Below, in pieces: positions 9,912-60,740 of a stretch of 64,000 nucleotides of DNA. Source of the DNA: Candidatus Melainabacteria bacterium SSGW_16 (GTDB taxonomy: Bacteria; Cyanobacteriota; Vampirovibrionia; 2-02-FULL-35-15); NCBI GenBank assembly GCA_004769085.1, contig DUDS01000044.1, forward strand, positions 44,670-108,669, read 5' to 3'. The stretch's first letter is position 1. Each line of letters opens with the position of its first letter. The notes under the pieces were generated by a model. That model made no database searches. It worked only from the letters and a program-made list of their open reading frames with translations, and was not told the origin of the DNA. The translations under genes and the position numbers were made by a program.

Positions 9912-9981
9912 CCACCTAATTGTATGAAATTGCTTAACCCTCGGAGTAGTAATAATATAACAACAACCTCTTCTAAAGAAA

Positions 9982-10094
9982 GGTTTTGTTCAATTTATTT
10001 GACAAAACCTGTAACCCGTTAAATTTAGTCTATATTAAGTGGACTATGGAAAGGTGGCGAGTCTCATTATGAGCGAGCCACCTGAGTAAAAAAC
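9982..10094 (+). promoter_or_regulatory. GC-rich leader element, copy R1a, upstream of the 113-aa ORF. It has three parts: a hairpin GGUUUUGUC/GACAAAACC at 9982-10009, then CCUGUAAC...AUAUUAAGUGG, then UAUGGAAAGGUGGCG...GCCACCUGAGUAAAAAA containing a 6-codon mini-ORF.
   Basis: Near-identical to the copy at 60490-60534 on the other strand. The mini-ORF ATGAGCGAGCCACCTGAGTAA spans 10069-10089. This is a GC island in AT-rich intergenic DNA. Confidence 0.6.
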
Positions 10095-10216
10095 ACATAA
10101 CATTAAATAGATTTAATCAATAATTCACAAGTCTTTAGAAGTCTAGTACAAATTCACTGTCAAAATATAGACAGATTTTACCTTATATATTCACAAGGAA
10201 GAGAAAGGTTACAAAA

Positions 10217-18479: not shown

Positions 18480-18612
18480 AACAACCTAAATACTTTAACA
18501 ATCTTTAAAAAGTCTTTCTACAGCATTGATGTAATGTAATATATTATATTAATCATGCAACGCAACTACTCAGCTACCACAATAATCTATTAGTAAACAG
18601 TCAACATGGAAA

Positions 18613-18719
18613 GGTTTTGACGATTCATTCGTCAAAACCTGTATAATATTACAAGTGGCAGACCGTGAGCACTTTGCAAAGCCGACAAGCGAAGAATGAG
18701 CGAGGAAGGCGGTGAGTAA
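18613..18719 (+). promoter_or_regulatory. GC-rich leader element, copy R2a, upstream of the aldolase-like gene. It contains, in order: a hairpin GGUUUUGACG-AUUCAUU-CGUCAAAACC; an extended -10-like TGTATAAT; AUUACAAGUGG; then UUUGCAAAGCC...GCGAAGAAUGAGCGAGGAAGGCGGUGAGUAA.
   Basis: The hairpin spans 18613-18639. A possible sigma-70 promoter is TTGACG (18617-18622), a 19-nt spacer, then TG-TATAAT (18640-18647). The mini-ORF ATGAGCGAGGAAGGCGGTGAGTAA (18696-18719) ends 5 nt before the main ATG. The element is paralogous to 34723-34833 on the minus strand. Confidence 0.6.
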
Positions 18720-18724
18720 TTACC

Positions 18725-19648
18725 ATGCAACAAATAACAGAACACTCTTCTGAAACAAAATGCAGAGAAGATTTAACTAAGGTCTGTAACCTTTTATATA
18801 TAAAGGGCCTGATTTCCGGGTTTGATGGAAACATAAGTTTAAAGTCTGATGAAAGAACAATTCTTATCACACCTTTAAACACACATAAAGGGTTAATAAA
18901 ACCTGAGCAATTCACAAAAGTAGATATTAGCGGAGAAATCATATCAGGTGGAAAACCATCCTCAGAACTTGACATTCATCTTGAAGCATATAAAAAAAGA
19001 CCTGATATAAACGCAATTATTCATGCACACCCCCCAACACTTATTTCACTTACTGTAAGCGGAATGAACCTGGATGAGCCTTTAATTCCTGATGTTATTA
19101 ATAATCTTGGCAGTATACCAACAGTACCTTACCCTGGGACAGATAAAGAAAAAGAAAAATCACTTATAGTATCAAGTTTAGAAAATCATGATGCAATTAT
19201 TCTGGAACGTCACGGTGCAGTTACAGTAGGAAGTGATATTTACAGAGCTTTGCACTATACAGAGTTGCTTGAATTTGCTGCAAAGATCATGTTCAATGCA
19301 AAGATTGCTGGTGAGATTTTTCCACTTGATAAATCACAAATAAAAGAAATTTTAAATGAAAGAGAGAAAGCCTGTGGCAGAAATATTGATACAAAATCAG
19401 AATTAAATAATTACTGTAAACATAAAAATAAATTTAATTTAAAGAATCTATTTGCAAAATTATTTGAAGGAAACTCACTGGTATTTCAGAGAATTCTATG
19501 TCTTATAAATGAACTTAATCTGTCAGTCATTTCAAGGACAAGCTATGCAAGTAAACTTACCCATCTGGAAAGAGAAGAATTATCGAGAGAACTGACAGCC
19601 TCATTTATTGGAATGCTGATTGGAAGATTTACAGGTAAAAAGCTTTAA
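18725..19648 (+). CDS. Class II aldolase/adducin-family protein (MtnB/fuculose-phosphate-aldolase-like) with an about 100-aa C-terminal extension.
   Basis: The metal-binding pattern of the aldolase II fold (E...H.H ... IIHAHPP ... ERHGAVTVG) is recognisable in the first 210 aa. Confidence 0.6.
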   Translation: MQQITEHSSETKCREDLTKVCNLLYIKGLISGFDGNISLKSDERTILITPLNTHKGLIKPEQFTKVDISGEIISGGKPSSELDIHLEAYKKRPDINAIIHAHPPTLISLTVSGMNLDEPLIPDVINNLGSIPTVPYPGTDKEKEKSLIVSSLENHDAIILERHGAVTVGSDIYRALHYTELLEFAAKIMFNAKIAGEIFPLDKSQIKEILNEREKACGRNIDTKSELNNYCKHKNKFNLKNLFAKLFEGNSLVFQRILCLINELNLSVISRTSYASKLTHLEREELSRELTASFIGMLIGRFTGKKL

Positions 19649-27855: not shown

Positions 27856-28863
27856 TTATTTTATTTCAATACTAAAATCTTCTATTACAGGGTTTGCTAA
27901 AAGCCTCTCACACATTTCATTAACAATTTTCTTGACTTCAGCAGGCGAATCTGCATCAATTTTAAAAACAACTTCTTTTCCTATTCTAAGTTCCGATATA
28001 TCCTTATAACCAAGCGAGCTTAAAGCTTTTTCAACAGCTTGCCCCTGTGGATCAAGGATATCTTTTTTAGGAAGAACCTGAACTTTAACTGAATACTTCG
28101 TACTTTTGTTATTCCGAACTGAAGGGGAGGCAATAAGACTTTTAGAACCTTCTTTTACTCTTTTAAGCATTTCCTGATAAGCACCTTCTACATTTCCCAG
28201 GTCCTGCCTGAAGCGGTCCTTATCAAGTTTTTCATTTGTTTTTGCATCCCAGAATCTAAAATTATCGGGAGATAATTCATCTGCTAATAACAACTCTCCA
28301 TTCTTATCCGTACCAAATTCAAGTTTAAAATCAACAACCTTTATTCCAACTCCAATAAAAAACTCCTTAAAGATTTCATTTGCTTTTAGTGCAAGACTTG
28401 TAATTTCATCGAGTATTTTGTCATCAGCCACTTCAAGTGCATCTTTAATATATGCACGGGTAAGCAATGGATCACCAAGTGCATCATCCTTATAACTAAA
28501 CTCAACAATAGGATTTTTAAGTATTTTACCTTCTTTTATACCTAATCTTTTACACAAACTCCCTGCAGTAATATTTCTAACAATAACTTCTAGAGGAATA
28601 ATTTTTACTTTTTTAATTAAAAGTTCATTCTCTGAGATTTGTTTTATAAAATGTGTTTTAATTCCACTTTTTTCACAAAGCTCAAAAAGATAAGCAGAAA
28701 TAGTAGCATTTACTTTTCCTTTGTCGTGAATTTCGCCTTTTTTCTGGGCATTAAAAGCAGTAGCGCTGTCTCTAAAGTAGGCCCGCATAACAGAAGGATC
28801 ATCAGTTTCAAATAAATCCTTTGCCTTGCCTGAATAAACTGGTTTTGTGGAAACAACTGGCAT
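27856..28863 (-). CDS. purC: SAICAR synthetase fused to a C-terminal PurS domain (FGAM synthase PurS subunit).
   Basis: N-terminal about 235 aa has PurC motifs (YSGKAKDLF, ...EVIVRN...). The C-terminal about 80 aa, VKVQVLPKKDILDPQGQAVEKALSSLGY...MCERLLANPVIEDFSIE, is a clear PurS sequence. Confidence 0.85.
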   Translation of the reverse strand: MPVVSTKPVYSGKAKDLFETDDPSVMRAYFRDSATAFNAQKKGEIHDKGKVNATISAYLFELCEKSGIKTHFIKQISENELLIKKVKIIPLEVIVRNITAGSLCKRLGIKEGKILKNPIVEFSYKDDALGDPLLTRAYIKDALEVADDKILDEITSLALKANEIFKEFFIGVGIKVVDFKLEFGTDKNGELLLADELSPDNFRFWDAKTNEKLDKDRFRQDLGNVEGAYQEMLKRVKEGSKSLIASPSVRNNKSTKYSVKVQVLPKKDILDPQGQAVEKALSSLGYKDISELRIGKEVVFKIDADSPAEVKKIVNEMCERLLANPVIEDFSIEIK

Positions 28864-28892
28864 AAGAATATTTTATCTCCATGCATCAACAG

Positions 28893-29030
28893 GTGTGTAA
28901 ACAAACCACAGATGACTTAAGTAAGCTCATTTACCCATCAGGCTGAGCGACGAAGGGTGGTCCGTCAGTTCTTGGATAGAGGAGCGAAGCCGGATGCAGG
29001 TAAATGGGCTTACCCTTAAAGAATTTACAC
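28893..29030. promoter_or_regulatory. Conserved GC-rich structured element R3a in the 5' region of purC-purS. It is paralogous to 41937-42058.
   Basis: Nested inverted repeats: GTGTAAA/TTTACAC, CTTAAGTAAGC/GCTTACCCTTAAAG and CATTTACC/GGTAAATG. The core CCCATCAGGCTGAGCGACGAAGGG..TCCGTCAGTTCTTGGATAGAGGAGCGAAGCCGGATGCAGG is shared with the second copy. Confidence 0.6.
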
Positions 29031-29038
29031 AATTGCCA

Positions 29039-30262
29039 TCAACGATCAACATCAGGAAGAATAACATCAAGACTACTAAATATTGCTACTACATCTGCAA
29101 CAGGATGTCCTTTAATTAAATCAGGTAATACTGAAACATTGTTAAAAGAAGGTGAACGCCATTTAATACGATAAGGAACTGAAGTACCGTCTGCTATTAA
29201 ATGCACCCCGAGTTGTCCTCTTGGAGATTCAACTGCTGTATAGGCTTCTCCGGGGCCACATTTAAAACCCATTGGGACATTTTTCCCTTTAGCTATAGTC
29301 ATTAAATCTTCTGCTTTATAAACAGGGTTTGTACCACTGGTAAGCTGAGCTTTGTTCTTTTCTAAGTCCTCAGTATCACCACCAGGAAGTTTATCAATTA
29401 TCTGAGTAATAAGTTTGGCTGATTCTCGCATTTCTTGTATTCTGCATTTATATCTCGCATTAGTATCACTCACAGTAGAAACAGGGACTTCAAAATCAAG
29501 CTTGTCATAAACAGAATAAGGTTTGTATTTTCTTAAATCAATATTTATTCCTGATGCTCTAAGACTTGGTCCAGTTACACCACGATCTATTGCAAGCTCA
29601 GGACTTAAATAACCAACACCTTGTGTTCTAACTAAAAATATTGGATTTCTTGTTGCAAGTGATTCATATTCATCCACATATTTGGGGAATTCTGTAGTAA
29701 TCCATTTTTTCACTTTTCTAGTCCAGCCTTTTGGCAAATCCTTAAATACCCCACCAATCCTGATGTAATTAAACATCATCCTTTGACCTGAAACTTCTTC
29801 CAGAAATCCAAGTATTGTTTCCCTGTCCCTGAACGTATAAAAAGGAAATCCAAACATTGCCCCAAGATCAAGCATGAAAATTCCAAGCCACAGTAAATGT
29901 GAAATTATTCTGTTTAATTCTGAGCAAAGGGCCCTTATATATTCAGCCCTTAAAGGAACCGTTATGCCAGCAATTTTTTCAACAGCCATAATATATGCAT
30001 GACTGTCTGACATTCCTGCCAGATAATCTACCCTGTCAACAAGAGCCTGATACTGAACATAAGTTCTGTTCTGCCCAAGCCATTCCATTCCTCTATGAAG
30101 ATATCCAATAACAGGTTCACATTTTCTGACTATTTCTCCATCAAGATTTAAAACAAGTCTTAAAACACCGTGTGTTGAAGGATGCTGGGGCCCCATGTTA
30201 ATAACCATTTCATCTGTCTTAAAACCTTTTTCAGCTTGTTCAGTATCTCTTACAATTGACAA
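29039..30262 (-). CDS. nuoD: NADH-quinone oxidoreductase subunit D.
   Basis: 407 aa with MGPQHPSTHGVLRL and the C-terminal Ni-Fe-hydrogenase-like fold motifs. It is separated from nuoABC by two intervening genes. Confidence 0.9.
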   Translation of the reverse strand: MSIVRDTEQAEKGFKTDEMVINMGPQHPSTHGVLRLVLNLDGEIVRKCEPVIGYLHRGMEWLGQNRTYVQYQALVDRVDYLAGMSDSHAYIMAVEKIAGITVPLRAEYIRALCSELNRIISHLLWLGIFMLDLGAMFGFPFYTFRDRETILGFLEEVSGQRMMFNYIRIGGVFKDLPKGWTRKVKKWITTEFPKYVDEYESLATRNPIFLVRTQGVGYLSPELAIDRGVTGPSLRASGINIDLRKYKPYSVYDKLDFEVPVSTVSDTNARYKCRIQEMRESAKLITQIIDKLPGGDTEDLEKNKAQLTSGTNPVYKAEDLMTIAKGKNVPMGFKCGPGEAYTAVESPRGQLGVHLIADGTSVPYRIKWRSPSFNNVSVLPDLIKGHPVADVVAIFSSLDVILPDVDR

Positions 30263-31602: not shown

Positions 31603-33030
31603 CTAAAGATTTCTCACATCAATAAACGGAAAGCGTTCACTGGTGACAAAATCGCCTCTTTTTTTAAATCTTCCAATCCCCATTAGTTCAAGAATTGTTT
31701 CTCCAACCATAGAAGCATGATAAGCATCACCAACTATTTCTCCTTTATTATTAGTTTGACCTATTAACTTTCCCTTCTTAATATCATTGCCAAAAACAAC
31801 CATCCCGAATGCATTAGTCCAATGTTGACGCCCAGCCGCTTTGTAAAGCGGTTCACCAGTTTCAACATCTCTGTCTACTTCATATCCTGGCGTCCTACCA
31901 AATTCAGTCACCATTACAACATACACTTTCTCATTCATACGATTTATATCATCTAGTAAAGCACTTAATGCTTGAGCAAACGGAGGAATCATAAGCCTCA
32001 TATTGTTCTCTAAACCACCATGATGGTCATAATTACCATCATTTGCAACTACAATCCTGGCACCCCTTTGAAGCATTCGTCTTGCAAGCAGCAATTGTTT
32101 TCCTACTTTACTATCTCCATATTTTATTATTTCTTCAGGTGATTCATTGTTTAAATCAAAAGATTTGTAGAAATCTCCACCGAGTAAACTTCTAGCCTTC
32201 TCATATGATTTTCTATGTTTATCTACTGATGCTCCAACAAGTTTATGCCCATTTATAGCTTCCATTTGGTCAAGAAGTTCCAGCCTAGCCCTTAGTTCAT
32301 TAATTGGAATACCATCTGTATCATTAAACGGGTTTGTAAATGCTCCTGTATTGGTATCATATGCTGAATAAATAGTTTCTGGATCTCCTGACTTTACAGC
32401 ATCCCATGGACTTCTAAATAACCTATCATCACCATGTATATCTTTTGTATTTTGATGAAGGACTACATAACCAACATCTTTAGTAGCTTGCTTAGTTAAC
32501 GTCCTTGAGAACTCTACAAAAGGATTTGTATTTGGCGTTGGTGAATAAAAATCTGAACCTTCTACTTTTGGACTTGAAGTAAAAACAATTGCACCACCAA
32601 CATGATGGAACCCATCACCACCATATAAATTGTTAACCACAACTGCATTGTTCATGTGTCTTGCAATTGGATTAAGAATGTCAGTAACTTTAATATCACT
32701 ACATGCAGTATCAATTGGTTTAAATGGTCCAGCTATGCTTGAATGTGTTTTTGGATCAAAGGTATCAAAAAAACTAAGCCCTCCTTGCATAAAAACAATA
32801 ACTACCTTATGCCCTGGATCTTTACCATTTCTTGTTGTAAACCTTAACTCATGCTCAGGAATGATATCGCTAACCTGAACTCCAGCTCCAGATGCATGAC
32901 TTGGAAGAAGGGAAGGTAAAAGTGTTGCTGCAATAGGCATACTAAAAGCAGTATGCAAAAACCTTCTACGTGTAAGTTGAGGGTTATATACAAAATTAGC
33001 TTGTGGAATATTTACAGGAAAAATCCCCAT
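31603..33030 (-). CDS. DUF1501-family protein (sulfatase/alkaline-phosphatase-like superfamily) with a twin-arginine signal.
   Basis: The N-terminus has TRRRFLHTAFSMPIAATLL (Tat motif). The FMQGGLSFFDTFDPK signature is typical of DUF1501. Confidence 0.65.
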   Translation of the reverse strand: MGIFPVNIPQANFVYNPQLTRRRFLHTAFSMPIAATLLPSLLPSHASGAGVQVSDIIPEHELRFTTRNGKDPGHKVVIVFMQGGLSFFDTFDPKTHSSIAGPFKPIDTACSDIKVTDILNPIARHMNNAVVVNNLYGGDGFHHVGGAIVFTSSPKVEGSDFYSPTPNTNPFVEFSRTLTKQATKDVGYVVLHQNTKDIHGDDRLFRSPWDAVKSGDPETIYSAYDTNTGAFTNPFNDTDGIPINELRARLELLDQMEAINGHKLVGASVDKHRKSYEKARSLLGGDFYKSFDLNNESPEEIIKYGDSKVGKQLLLARRMLQRGARIVVANDGNYDHHGGLENNMRLMIPPFAQALSALLDDINRMNEKVYVVMVTEFGRTPGYEVDRDVETGEPLYKAAGRQHWTNAFGMVVFGNDIKKGKLIGQTNNKGEIVGDAYHASMVGETILELMGIGRFKKRGDFVTSERFPFIDVRNL

Positions 33031-34341: not shown

Positions 34342-34719
34342 TTATTCATCAAAATCCAGCACACCTTTAGTCCAGGCATAATAAAGACCAAGTGCCAGCA
34401 TAAATACAAAAATAAAAGCTTCAATAATTAAAAACATTCTGTTTGCTGTAACATCAAATATTACTGCCCACGGTACAAGAAAAACAAACTCAACATCAAA
34501 AACAATAAATATCAGTGCATAGAGATAGTATTTAATATCGTATTGGATTTTTGTTTCATGAAATACCTTTATTCCACATTCATATGGCTCAGTTTTTACC
34601 TGTGTAGGACTGTAAATCCCAAATATTCTTTGTATAACTGCTGAGAGAAGTAATAATGTTAAACCAAGTAAAAATCCAACTACAGTAAAAATTCCTATTT
34701 GCATAAGTTGGGATGACAT
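34342..34719 (-). CDS. nuoA: NADH-quinone oxidoreductase subunit A.
   Basis: 125 aa, three TM helices, PYECG motif. Confidence 0.85.
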   Translation of the reverse strand: MSSQLMQIGIFTVVGFLLGLTLLLLSAVIQRIFGIYSPTQVKTEPYECGIKVFHETKIQYDIKYYLYALIFIVFDVEFVFLVPWAVIFDVTANRMFLIIEAFIFVFMLALGLYYAWTKGVLDFDE

Positions 34720-34722
34720 TTT

Positions 34723-34833
34723 TTACCTACCGCCTTTCTCGCTCATTCTTCGCTTGTCAGGCTTTGCAATGTGCACTTAAAAGATACCTCTTTTCACACC
34801 TTTCAGATTTTACCGAATGAATCGGATAAAATC
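34723..34833 (-). promoter_or_regulatory. GC-rich leader element, copy R2b, directly upstream of nuoA. It has a hairpin GAUUUUAUCCG-AUUCAUU-CGGUAAAAUC, then UUUUAAGUGCACAUUGCAAAGCC, then GCGAAGAAUGAGCGAGAAAGGCGGUAGGUAA.
   Basis: The mini-ORF ATGAGCGAGAAAGGCGGTAGGTAA (34746-34723) stops 3 nt before the nuoA ATG. The hairpin stems differ from copy R2a but keep pairing, and the loop is identical. Confidence 0.6.
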
Positions 34834-34908
34834 TTCCTGCATAAATAGTCAAACCTGATATTGTTACCTAACCAGGTAGTAACAACAATTAATTTATATC
34901 ATACCTTA

Positions 34909-40813: not shown

Positions 40814-41959
40814 TTAGAATCCTAAGATCTTAGCAATCTTATCAATATCTGCTTCAACTTCATGTTCAGCAGTACCTGCATATTTAATAGCAGAATCAGG
40901 ATCTTTTAAACCATTACCAGTTAAGACGCAAACTACGGTTGATTCAGGAGCAATTTTTTTTGCTTTTGCACTTTTAATTAATCCAGCAACAGATGCAGCA
41001 CTAGCAGGTTCACATGCAACACCCTCCATTTGATGAAGGATTTTATATGATTCTATAATTTCCTCGTCTGTTACTACATCTATAAAGCCACCTGAATCTT
41101 TAGATGCCTGAACTGCCTGTTTCCAGCTGGCAGGATTTCCTATCCTGATTGCAGTAGCAATTGTTTCTGGTTTCTCAATAATTTTATTCTGAACAATTGG
41201 CGCTGCACCACTTGCTTCAAAACCAATCATCCTGGGTTTATCTTCTTTTATATATTCACAAAAACCTTTCCAGTAAGCAGTAATATTTCCTGCATTACCA
41301 ACAGGAATAGAAAGTATGTCAGGAGATCTGCCAAGCTGCTCACAAACTTCAAACGCTGCTGTTTTCTGTCCTTCTATTCTGAAGGGATTTAATGAGTTAA
41401 CCAGTGTCACTGGATATTTACTAACAATTTCTTTTACTAGTTTTAATGCTTCATCAAAATTACCTTTTACTTGAATTACTTTTGCACCATAAATCATTGC
41501 CTGAGATAGTTTACCTAAAGCAACATATCCTTTTGGTACAAGAACAAAACATTCCATCTTAAAACCATTTGCTCTTGCCCTGGCTGCATATGCAGCTGCA
41601 CTGGCACTGGTATTTCCTGTGCTTGCACAAATTATTGCTTGTGATTTTTCTTCTACTGCTTTACTTATTGCAACAGTCATTCCACGATCTTTAAAACTTC
41701 CTGTTGGATTTGCACCTTCTACTTTTAAATATACAGACAATCCTGGCACACCACATAATTTTGAAATATGGGATGCAAATACAAGCGGTGTATTTCCTTC
41801 ATTTAAAGTAACTATTGGTGTTTTGTTTGTGATAGGCAAATATGTCTGATAACAGTCAATTATGCCATTCCATGGCTGTGTAAAAATTGTGGATTTGGAT
41901 ATCACAAAGAAATATTTTAGCAGACTGGGCATGGATGAGCATTTAATGTGTGAGCCCAT
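40814..41959 (-). CDS. thrC: Threonine synthase (short, Bacillus-type). The annotated 5' end runs into the R3b element, so the real start is probably internal and may be non-ATG.
   Basis: [31 protein letters not shown] followed by the PLP-lysine [12 protein letters not shown] motif. Confidence 0.85.
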
Positions 41960-42058
41960 TTACCTACATCGGTCTTCGCTCCTCTATCCAAGAACTGACG
42001 GACCCTTCGTCGCTCAGCCTGATGGGTAAACGGCCTCACTTGTAATTTGTTTACACCC
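41937..42058. promoter_or_regulatory. Conserved GC-rich structured element R3b between the divergent thrC and purQ. It is paralogous to 28893-29030.
   Basis: It shares an about 80-nt core with R3a. The closing helix GUGAGCC-CAUUUACC ... GGUAAA-C-GGCCUCAC covaries relative to R3a (GUAAGC/GCUUAC becomes GAGCC/GGCCUC). The 3' tail UUUGUUUACAC.CC is conserved in purQ/purC sense. Confidence 0.6.
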
Positions 42059-42065
42059 CTTAAAA

Positions 42066-42767
42066 ATGCTAAAATTAAACTGTATGAAATTCTCAGTAAT
42101 AATATTTCCAGGTTCAAACTGCGATGAAGACTGTATTCATGTGCTAAAAAATGTGCTCGGTCAGGAAGTAAATAAAGTTTTTCATACTGAAGAAAAGCTC
42201 CTAAAGACAGACTGTGTAGTTATACCAGGAGGATTCAGCTATGGCGATTATCTAAGATCAGGAGCTATAGCCAGGTTTTCAAATATTATTAATCCAATAA
42301 TAGATTTTGCTAACAAGGGCGGCTTAGTAATTGGTACTTGTAACGGTTTTCAAATTTTGTGTGAGGCAGGGTTATTACCTGGTGCGCTCACAACCAATAA
42401 ATCTCTAAGTTTTATTTGCGATGAAGTGTATCTTAAAATATCAAACAGTAAAACAAAATTTACAAGTGAATACAGAAATAATGAAATAATCAGACTACCA
42501 ATAGCGCATGGAGATGGACGTTATATTACAAAAGATTTAAACAAAGAACAAATCATATTTCAGTACTGCAGCAAAGATGGAATTATCAATGATAATTTTA
42601 ATCCGAACGGATCTACTGAGAATATTGCAGGAATAATAAATAAAAAAGGGAACGTGCTTGGAATGATGCCACATCCTGAAAGAGCATGTGAATCCATATT
42701 AGGGAATGAAGATGGAAAAAAACTATTTGCAAGTCTAATTAGCTCATCTATTGCCCTTGTACATTAA
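42066..42767 (+). CDS. purQ: Phosphoribosylformylglycinamidine synthase subunit PurQ (glutaminase).
   Basis: 233 aa. [14 protein letters not shown], the catalytic GTCNGFQIL cysteine motif, and the C-terminal MMPHPER. Confidence 0.9.
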
Positions 42768-44133
42768 AGAACAGATTTTTTTCAATTTGAATGTTATTGG
42801 CATATTTTGCTTTTGCAAGATTTACAGCAGCTTCTGTATTGAGAAGTCCATTACCAAACACAAAATCTTTTCCTGGCTCTCCTAAATCTTCTGCAGACTG
42901 AAACAGTATTTGCCTGACATCCTCAGAAGAAATATCCGGAGCAACAGACCAAATTAATGCTGCTGTTCCAGCTACCTGTGGAGCAGCAAATGATGTTCCT
43001 GAAACTGAGGAATACCCTGAATAAAGTGAAGTGGTATAAATAGATGCTCCAGGTGCTACAAGGGAAACATGATCTCCCAGGGTACTATATGATTCAATTT
43101 TCTTACTGGAATTTACTGCACCAACACCTATAACACCTTCAAATGCTGCCGGGTACCTAACTTCTCTCTCACCTGTATTTCCCGCAGTGGATATAATGAG
43201 TATCCCTCTTTCATTTGCTTCCTGAACTGAATCTTTCAAAACCTGTGAGAACTGACTTGTACTTAAGCTGATTTGTACAATTTTAACTCCTTCAGTATAT
43301 GTACGGTCTAACGCTTCAACCACTGTTGAAACCCTGGCCTGACCATACTCATCTGTTACCTTTATAGGTAATATTTTTGTATTCCATGAAACTCCAGCTA
43401 TACCCTGTTTATTATTTGTATTTGCTGCTATTATTCCGGATACTTCAGTTCCATGACCGATAGCATCGTTTTTGTCTTCCGGTAGAAGATTTTCACTCCC
43501 AAATATTTTTCCTTCCAAATCAGGGTGATTAGCATCAACGCCTGTATCCAGCACACCAACTACCAGCGAATTGCCTTTTGTTGTACCCCATGCTTTTGGT
43601 GCATTTATTTGTCTTAAATAGTATTGGGATGAAAAGTCACTGTCATTTGGTGTTATTTCAAGTTGATCATTCAAAACATCTCCCTCTTTTATATCATTTA
43701 CATTTTCTGCAATGTTGTTACTTTCTCCCTGTGCATTTTCATCTCTTATATTTATCTTTATGTAATTTCTCTCGTCAGAAATCTCATCCAGATAAAATTT
43801 ATAATCAGGTTCTACTGTTTTAAACAAACCGCTATTTTTTAATTCCTGTATCTTAGCAACTTTATCTTCTGAGCTGCTTAAAGGAATAACAAAGAGATTA
43901 CTTTTTACTTTTCTGTAACCAACAATTCCTGCTCTGTACATAAGCCTGTCAAGTCTCCTTCCTCGTTGAGCTTCACTAGAAGGAACAACAATCAATGAAT
44001 CATAATCATCTTCAGAATTTTCTTTTGCACTAACAGCTGAAAAACCAGGTAAAAAAGAAAAAGCAAGAAGTAAAAAGCACATTAATACCCTTAGTGCCTG
44101 TAACTTCCTGCCTGTTACTTTGTAATTTGTCAT
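42748..44133 (-). CDS. Secreted S8-family (subtilisin-like) serine peptidase.
   Basis: Catalytic triad motifs [17 protein letters not shown] and [11 protein letters not shown]. Signal peptide after the [25 protein letters not shown] start. The table's start at 44190 lies inside a GC-rich leader. Confidence 0.85.
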
Positions 44134-44260
44134 TGTTTTGATTCGGTAACCCAGCTGCCCGTTCCGGGCCTGTAGCTTTGCGTCCTGCAATTCCTTGCAG
44201 TTTGCCCTTTCGTCAAAGGCTTAAAAATTAAGCCAAAAAAAACAAAAGTTACTTAAAGTA
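44134..44260 (-). promoter_or_regulatory. GC-rich structured 5' leader of the S8 peptidase gene.
   Basis: In gene sense it shows three hairpins: GGCUUAAUUUUUAAGCC, CUGCAA-GGAA-UUGCAG (GNRA-like loop), and GCCCG-GAA-CGGGC. It is purine-rich with GCAAAGC and GACGAAAGGG motifs shared with the other leaders. Confidence 0.45.
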
Positions 44261-60458: not shown

Positions 60459-60489
60459 AAATTAATTAATTTAATTCTCAAATATTTTT

Positions 60490-60595
60490 TTACTCAGGTG
60501 GCTTGCTCATAATTCGCTGCGCCACCTTTCCATACTACTCCTGGTAAACCAAATCCTCCACAATTCAGGTTTTGCGGAATGAATCGGTCAAAACC
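60490..60595 (-). promoter_or_regulatory. GC-rich leader element, copy R1b, upstream of the 1203-aa ORF: a hairpin GGUUUUGACCG-AUUCAUU-CCGCAAAACC followed by the UAUGGAAAGGUGGCG...GCCACCUGAGUAAAAAAA module.
   Basis: In minus sense it reads tatggaaaggtggcgcagcgaattatgagcaagccacctgagtaaaaaaa, which matches 10045-10094 with the differences concentrated in the hairpin loop. The mini-ORF ATGAGCAAGCCACCTGAGTAA spans 60510-60490. Confidence 0.6.
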
Positions 60596-60740
60596 TTCTC
60601 TAATTAATTAGTTTATTTTAATTACCATCGACATAACTGAGTAATTATTTAAAACATTAAACTCAAAACATTCTATATCCTGTTATAAATTAAAATGTTA
60701 AAAACGAATCACACATTAGAAAGAGCAATAAAGATTAAAT

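Follow-up and report, generated by a model that had tools for sequence, protein, structure and literature searches.

Two closely similar GC-rich elements lie just upstream of the purine biosynthesis genes purC-purS and purQ in a 64,000-nucleotide stretch of the genome of Candidatus Melainabacteria bacterium SSGW_16 (GenBank contig DUDS01000044.1, positions 44,670 to 108,669; "the window" below). We propose that they are probably copies of a non-coding, hairpin-forming dispersed repeat of AT-rich Melainabacteria-like genomes, of the kind represented by miniature inverted-repeat transposable elements (MITEs) and by the ERIC and Correia sequences, and not a purine-sensing switch. We would class the element as a new family of a known kind, the miniature dispersed repeats, within an uncultivated clade. 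A first-pass annotation of the window had raised the alternative of a purine-pathway cis-regulator, which did not hold up: the purC-purS leader is empty in three of the three closest relatives and the purQ leader is without the element in two of three, further copies precede asd and mnmA, the element diverges at nearly the synonymous rate, its covariation is weak and strand-unspecific, and no terminator-like site accompanies it at either locus.

Two copies of one element in the window

The two copies are placed as follows.

28891-29036, minus strand: copy 1, hairpin repeat, long form of 146 nt, between the nuoD-like stop codon and purC-purS
41937-42059, plus strand: copy 2, hairpin repeat, short form of 123 nt, within the divergent thrC-purQ spacer

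Both are ~125-145 nt long with a GC content of about 47-54% (about 52-54% in the cores), in a window and genome of 34.6% GC. That similar GC-rich elements stand 5' of purC-purS and purQ, as the first-pass annotation had it, is borne out at both places by alignment and by a covariance model. Read in the sense of the downstream purine gene (pur sense), positions 28892-29032 (-) align with 41937-42059 (+) over ~125 nt, and a core of ~95 nt is roughly 95% identical between the copies, as judged from the alignment and the inverted-repeat pairs. A covariance model of five family members scored copy 1 with 150.7 bits (28892-29029 (-), E ~1e-33) and copy 2 with 139.1 bits (41934-42059 (+), E ~1e-30), values that place the match between the copies far beyond chance.

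The element begins and ends with GCAATTGTGTAAA ... TTTACACACCT. Copy 1 has the long form and resembles the copies found in another genome, and the short form is shared by copy 2 and its counterpart on contig L012; copy 1 is therefore probably not derived from copy 2. An 8-bp terminal inverted repeat, TGTGTAAA/TTTACACA, lies 3-6 nt inside the ends of copy 1; its equivalent in the copy at locus L028 is TGTAAA (6 bp), and it is degenerate in copy 2, in L012 and in the copy at locus L019. The arms (helix P1) are the variable part of the element, and an asymmetric interior of ~45 nt is almost unchanged across two genomes; 18 of these ~45 positions were fixed by the word used to search for further copies, and the adjacent 25 nt were not.

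The purC-purS site is filled in the window and empty in relatives

For the purC site we compared contigs encoding the closest PurC-PurS homologues, which are 95% (L001), 90% (L003) and 85% (L006) identical. In all three, only 22 nt separate the stop codon of the nuoD-like gene from the start of purC-purS, and no trace of the element shows in the alignments. The relatives with empty sites read ...GATCGTTGATGCCAGGAGATAAAATATTCTTATG, and the window reads ...GATCGTTGATG, then 146 nt, then GTTGATGCATGGAGATAAAATATTCTTATG. The heptamer GTTGATG is present only once at the empty sites (GATCGTTGATGCCAGG in L006), and the clean alignment with them establishes that the copy 1 insert (28891-29036) is bracketed by a 7-bp direct repeat.

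29037-29043, minus strand: upstream direct repeat GTTGATG, 7 bp, which includes the nuoD-like TGA stop; candidate target-site duplication (sequence reading)
28884-28890, minus strand: downstream direct repeat GTTGATG, 7 bp (sequence reading and alignment of relatives)

In a 78% relative (L007, 2388-2500) this nuoD-purC junction is occupied by another GC-rich hairpin, of three stems and unlike copy 1 (GTCATTGCGAGGAG...CTTCTCGCAATGAC), which suggests either an insertion hot spot or a structured spacer favoured there.

The purQ copy is older, can be lost and diverges at a near-neutral rate

Contig L012, which comes from the same sample as L001 with its empty purC site, carries an orthologous element at the same purQ location. 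In L010, whose PurQ is 91% identical, the thrC-purQ spacer measures 52 nt and keeps a 12-nt remnant, ATGTGTAAGCCC, that matches the 5' arm at 11 of 12 positions, indicating that most of the element was deleted there. L013, from the same samples as L003, has a 37-nt thrC-purQ spacer without the element. The L001/L012 genome thus has the element at purQ alone and the L003/L013 genome at neither site. From this comparison, the purQ copy predates the split between the window and L012 and can be lost, and the purC copy is younger.

Between the window and L012, 11 of the 123 positions of the purQ copy have changed (8.9%), three of them in the inner hairpin. At four-fold sites the same two sequences diverge by 10.1% in thrC, next to the element, and by 34% in purQ. 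The element therefore changes about as quickly as the silent sites of neighbouring thrC (8.9% versus 10.1%), and such near-synonymous divergence is not that of a tightly constrained aptamer. The rise in four-fold divergence from 10% (thrC) to 34% (purQ) occurs across the element-bearing spacer (window 41932-42767 against L012), suggesting a recombination boundary at or near the purQ element.

Further copies precede unrelated genes in another genome

Further copies were sought in JGI metagenome contigs by a single exact-match scan with an 18-nt word from the core. Of the 13 loci it gave, 11 match unrelated GC-rich DNA by chance and two, L019 and L028, are real copies. Both of these lie on Ga0080064_1000263, a 152-kb contig of another genome whose two sampled segments have ~34.5% GC, giving two copies on this contig and two in the 64-kb window. 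The L028 copy is upstream of asd (aspartate-semialdehyde dehydrogenase) and the L019 copy is upstream of an mnmA-like tRNA thiouridylase gene, both functions being read from the translations, and neither locus has any similarity to the window outside the element.

The five-copy covariance model recovered no further copy in the rest of the window, in the first set of relative loci, in the 10 kb past the right edge of the window or in the 20 kb examined from the 95% relative. In genome contigs, a 19-mer of the core was matched exactly only once, by chance, in a GC-rich Acidimicrobiia metagenome-assembled genome (L016); two scans of viral contigs gave nothing real (L030 is a chance match), and a protein-database search with concatenated six-frame translations of the element gave no matches. 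Contig L035 ends inside the element, and we considered whether this pointed to additional copies; a 31-nt stretch common to two known copies explains the break.

The rod-like fold has no strand preference and matches no known RNA family

In pur sense the element folds into a long rod, with an outer helix P0 (GUGUAAA/UUUACAC) in the long forms, a P1 of 15-20 bp and a P2 of 9 bp closing an asymmetric interior that consists of a C/U-rich strand of ~22 nt and a hairpin of 5-6 bp. The antisense strand carries several GGA motifs. Relative to shuffled sequences, fold z scores are -4.0 (copy 1) and -2.5 (copy 2) in pur sense and -3.5 and -4.1 in antisense, and the RNAalifold consensus is -35.4 kcal/mol in pur sense and -39.4 kcal/mol on the opposite strand. 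Across the five copies, 90.5% of cells pair and four of 38 pairs show a double-sided change; column shuffles yield a mean of 1.9 double-sided pairs, with 28 of 500 reaching four and 41 of 500 reaching the observed covariation score, figures that come from five sequences only. P1 and P2 together contain four G-U cells, which pair only in pur sense, and five cells of A-C or C-A, which become G-U when the opposite strand is read. Covariation is thus weak and P1/P2 pairing shows no strand preference. The inner hairpin alone prefers pur sense, through a G-U that is invariant and, in L012, two changes from C to U, and P2 position 42:95 appears as C-G, U-A and G-U among the copies. Between the two window copies, the compensatory change that the first-pass annotation saw in the closing helix is real in one case, a double-sided change from A-U to G-C, but was overstated, as two pairs are broken and one is gained. 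That annotation had also named occurrence upstream of unrelated genes and missing covariation among the outcomes that would speak against a purine regulator; in part this is the picture obtained, with the element at unrelated genes and no clear covariation signal among the five copies.

The riboswitch families to which the first-pass annotation could not match the element do not fit it: at both loci and on both strands, a search of Rfam 15 with cmscan at E up to 10 gave chance-level matches only (sR7, SNORD93, SAM-II at 13 bits and a 5.8S fragment), and at the gathering threshold the sole match in the whole window, c-di-GMP-I at 44142-44216, is not to the element. Other classes, compared by inspection only apart from the Rfam search, namely an integron attC site, a hammerhead ribozyme, a PyrR site and the Bacillus subtilis PurBox, do not fit, and neither do IS200/IS605 ends or omega-RNA, suggested by a TTGAT beside copy 1. 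Neither locus has a terminator-like site, sequestration of the ribosome-binding site not having been examined in detail; in the long-form copies the U-rich tail is held apart from the helix by a linker of 15 to ~25 nt (15 nt in copy 1).

Promoter-like signals at the downstream starts

The tail of the element does lie close to the start codon, as the first-pass annotation had noted, at 27 nt (purC-purS) and 24 nt (purQ, from the ATG at 42084) where it had put the distance at about 30 nt. At copy 1 this tail contributes to a promoter-like site.

28870-28899, minus strand: promoter-like TACACA (element tail), 18-nt spacer and TAAAAT ending 6 nt before the purC-purS ATG (consensus scan, 9/12)

The consensus scan found two sites at copy 1 against ~1.1 in shuffles, which makes this site a lead only, and returned no site at copy 2, where we read TTGTTT, a 17-nt spacer and TGcTAAAAT by eye. 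Hexamers resembling a -10 box (TAAAAT, TAGAAT, TAATAT) lie 6-11 nt before the starts of purC-purS, purQ, asd, mnmA and an aldolase-like gene of the window, those of the two purine genes at 28870-28875 and 42070-42075; the upstream regions of L001, L010, L013, L019 and L028 have such a hexamer as well. It is native, since the empty sites have it too. Among copies, 13 to 21 nt lie between the conserved tail and this hexamer, and the idea that the tail serves as a conserved -35 feature is in general unsupported at spacings this variable. If the -10-like boxes are used, the mRNAs would be nearly leaderless and the element would lie outside them. Shine-Dalgarno motifs are often missing at these starts, and divergent start codons stand 37-52 nt apart in relatives, which hints that leaderless mRNAs are common in the clade.

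A dispersed repeat weighed against regulatory alternatives

Several observations weigh against a dispersed repeat of MITE type. The terminal inverted repeat, of 8 bp in copy 1 and 6 bp in L028, is short and inset from the ends by a few bases, and conservation is highest in the asymmetric interior instead of at the ends, an unusual pattern for a MITE. Only copy 1 shows a target duplication, with none to be recognised at the other four copies, which are older; the Pfam scan of 48 open reading frames of the window brought up no transposase domain. Five copies at four independent sites were found, a small sample in which every copy is oriented toward the downstream gene and ends 24-30 nt before its likely start codon. 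At the mnmA copy an alternative in-frame ATG lies only 3 nt past the element, and the shared orientation and distance follow in part from spacers so short (22-52 nt when empty) that they offer few tolerated insertion points. Finally, both window copies sit at the sole two de novo purine loci among ~57 genes; two random draws would both hit purine loci about 1 time in 1600, a test made post hoc.

Placement at pur loci, shared orientation and the near-identical core keep alive a minority reading that we hold to be decidedly unlikely, in which a mobile regulatory module, either a structured leader or a promoter-proximal cassette, spreads by insertion and is kept where useful. Were it true, the arrivals at the PurS and PurQ genes would amount to regulon assembly by transposition, caught in the act, with the purQ arrival before the L012 split, the purC-purS arrival later and the core serving as the site for a ligand or protein. 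We think it on balance unlikely that the element is a leader RNA regulating in cis and specific to this lineage, whether riboswitch or protein-binding RNA, that acts in pur sense on the downstream gene and has spread to several genes by duplication or insertion; the C/U-rich asymmetric loop with its small hairpin would then be the ligand or protein site. The stable pur-sense fold (z -4.0 and -2.5), a ~45-nt interior with next to no variation between two genomes against a variable P1, the C-G, U-A and G-U states of P2 pair 42:95, an inner hairpin that in L012 stays paired through G-U only in pur sense, the common orientation of five of five copies with ends 24-30 nt before the ATG and the location of both window copies at genes for formylglycinamidine ribonucleotide (FGAM) synthase all favour such an RNA. 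Yet the element is absent from the orthologous leaders of close relatives and mostly deleted in L010, its four independent sites at purC-purS, purQ, asd and mnmA follow no common ligand logic, it diverges near the synonymous rate of adjacent thrC, no terminator-like site follows it, no Rfam family matches it and its covariation is not clearly above controls; moreover, the -10-like hexamer 6-11 nt before the ATGs suggests that transcription may begin downstream of it. Narrowing this RNA to a purine-responsive riboswitch specific to FGAM-synthase genes makes it highly improbable. Both window copies do stand before purC-purS and purQ, and L012 has a third before its purQ, but every point against a leader RNA applies here too, and the L001/L012 genome has the purQ copy only, the L003/L013 genome has neither and the other genome has copies at asd and mnmA. 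The tempting purine riboswitch is thus struck off, a GC-rich fold before two genes of the same pathway being insufficient evidence in this case.

The element might instead act at the level of DNA, as an untranscribed promoter or operator cassette that supplies a -35-like hexamer or a regulator site, which we regard as improbable. The combinations TACACA-18 nt-TAAAAT at copy 1 and TTGTTT-17 nt-TGcTAAAAT at copy 2 are of the kind such a cassette would provide, native -10-like boxes are kept in the relatives with empty sites, and with empty spacers of 22-52 nt any leader would be very short or missing; against this, the distance from tail to hexamer varies over 13-21 nt among copies, the consensus scan was without a site at copy 2 and AT-rich DNA abounds in hexamers of this sort. 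A separate gene for a small RNA, on one strand or the other, such as an antisense RNA rich in GGA that titrates a protein like CsrA, would be consistent with a GC-rich island in an AT-rich genome whose antisense strand has fold z scores of -3.5 and -4.1 and several GGA motifs. This proposal, too, has very little to recommend it, given that neither locus has a flanking pair of promoter and terminator, that no CsrB, Rsm or other Rfam family matches and that the element is insertion-polymorphic and partly deleted in relatives.

On the dispersed-repeat reading that we prefer, copies would be mobilised in trans by an enzyme that may be encoded outside the window. Insertion would be into very short spacers just upstream of genes, as at copy 1, and would leave a short target duplication, of 7 bp at the one young site. 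Inserted copies would then decay at about the neutral rate and could be deleted, as has happened at purQ. The rod fold would arise from the inverted-repeat architecture itself (P0 GTGTAAA/TTTACAC, then P1, then P2), which can form equally on either strand, and the near-invariant, asymmetric ~45-nt core may serve the mobilising protein as its recognition site. Effects on purC-purS or purQ, if any, would be no more than side effects, arising perhaps from a hairpin between nuoD and purC or from a -35-like hexamer set before a native -10 box.

Comparison with known repeats and riboswitches

Like bacterial MITEs, including those of cyanobacteria, the element is small (about 125-146 nt), non-coding and intergenic, with two copies in the window and two on one contig of another genome; it shares with them filled and empty orthologous sites and the inverted-repeat architecture of a long hairpin, and its one young insertion has a short direct repeat that is a candidate target duplication. 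It differs from them in its short, inset terminal repeat and conserved interior and in that no parent insertion sequence came to light, nor a transposase among the 48 scanned window open reading frames. ERIC (also IRU) sequences of enterobacteria and Correia (NEMIS) sequences of Neisseria are imperfect palindromes of ~100-150 bp found in short intergenic spacers beside genes; they are present or absent at orthologous sites, can contribute co-transcribed hairpins or promoter hexamers and occur in both orientations. The likeness of the pur element to these is one of architecture, with no sequence relationship expected and a different host phylum, and whereas ERIC and Correia sequences lie in both orientations, five of five pur-element copies face the downstream gene. 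REPINs and REP sequences, mobilised by RAYT transposases, are short, hairpin-forming, intergenic and non-autonomous repeats that evolve within genomes (PMC3116915). REPINs have two conserved REP arms and a variable loop, the reverse of the pur element with its variable arms and conserved interior, and the 48 scanned open reading frames of the window include no RAYT (Y1 transposase).

Purine riboswitches (guanine/adenine, ZTP/pfl, PRPP/ykkC-2b and xanthine/NMT1) resemble the element in being GC-rich structures that stand before genes of de novo purine synthesis, are closed by a long helix and have conserved nucleotides in their internal loops. Unlike them, it has no covariance-model match at E up to 10, is not conserved at orthologous pur leaders, stands also at asd and mnmA and has no terminator-like expression platform that we could see.

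Other GC-rich miniature elements beside gene starts

A second GC-rich element of the window, 162 nt at 18562-18723, lies upstream of the aldolase-like gene and a heme-biosynthesis cluster. It lies between the two copies of an 8-bp duplication, CATGCAAC (18554-18561 and 18724-18731), by which the aldolase-like gene has its start codon twice. Its terminal inverted repeats of 13 bp, gcaactactcagc and gtaattactcacc, match at 10 of 13 positions, and it is absent from the 95% relative L036, which shares a 20-kb region with the window. It looks like a clear miniature transposon, a textbook MITE. Its 3' end would give a Shine-Dalgarno-like GGTGAG to a gene that is seemingly leaderless in L036. A third element, at about 34720-34870 (-) upstream of nuoA (34342-34719), is likewise an insertion relative to L036, with a spacer of 189 nt against 75 nt there. 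It is a second member of the leader family of 18562-18723, with which it has the hairpin GATTTTATCCGATTCATTCGGTAAAATC and the 3' block ACAAGCGAAGAATGAGCGAG-AAGGCGGT in common. Two further related leader elements, at about 9975-10095 (+) and about 60486-60600 (-), have in common the hairpin AGGTTTTG...CAAAACCT and the block TATGGAAAGGTGGCG...GCCACCTGAGTAAAAAA; neither matches an Rfam family at the gathering threshold.

The covariance model of the pur element did not match any of these four GC-rich leader elements at E up to 10, and local alignment against the four gave z scores of -1.3 to 3.6 with a best match of 13 nt. A common origin, hinted at by the antisense 13-mer TGAGCGAnGAAGG, was therefore rejected (z at most 3.6). 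The suggestion that the pur element belongs to a dispersed family of leader elements, which the first-pass annotation had offered as its second option, is in this sense half right: it is the same kind of thing, an insertion absent from a relative, but without kinship in sequence (13-nt match, z <=3.6). Because two other window elements are also insertions absent from L036, the pur element is part of the same phenomenon, and together these cases show that miniature GC-rich insertions beside gene starts are frequent in this lineage. Several families of GC-rich miniature elements are thus present in these AT-rich, Melainabacteria-like genomes and have landed beside or even at start codons after the split from a relative of ~95% protein identity. 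They bear on annotation, through spurious N-terminal extensions, on the discovery of non-coding RNAs by GC scans and on how promoters in compact genomes may be rewired.

Neighbouring genes and further features of the window

The identities given earlier for PurC-PurS and PurQ were confirmed by Pfam, and the gene noted as thrC encodes an enzyme of the PALP family. The names carried by homologues of PurC-PurS and PurQ agree with a placement among the Candidatus Melainabacteria.

27856-28863, minus strand: purC-purS fusion, downstream of copy 1 (Pfam SAICAR_synt 1.1e-83, PurS 1e-28)
42084-42767, plus strand, longest open reading frame from 42066: purQ, downstream of copy 2 (Pfam GATase_5 6.9e-40)
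29039-30262, minus strand: NuoD-like gene, its stop codon abutting copy 1 (Pfam Complex1_49kDa 1.4e-92)
40814-41932, minus strand, longest open reading frame to 41959: thrC-like PALP gene, divergent from purQ (Pfam PALP 1.3e-72)

PurQ homologues are mostly 226-228 amino acids long and the ATG at 42084 yields a 227-amino-acid form, on which grounds this is probably the purQ start. The longest thrC reading frame enters the element by nine codons, giving 381 instead of 372 amino acids, and the same occurs in L012 (1103-2248). The 372-amino-acid form is the one called in relatives without the element, and the 381-amino-acid call is an annotation artefact of the insertion.

The c-di-GMP-I riboswitch (44142-44216 (-), 65.4 bits, E 1.5e-10) is upstream of a subtilase S8 gene. 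The longest subtilase reading frame (42748-44190) enters the riboswitch, which places the real start further downstream. A DUF1501 gene in the window (31603-33030 (-)) is absent from L036 between nuoC and a gene for a 376-amino-acid protein, a gene-sized indel. Some 1.1 kb past the right end of the window (~1.1 kb; L031, 11416-14380) lies a complete 23S rRNA gene (2816 bits), within a 3.7-kb stretch free of called genes.

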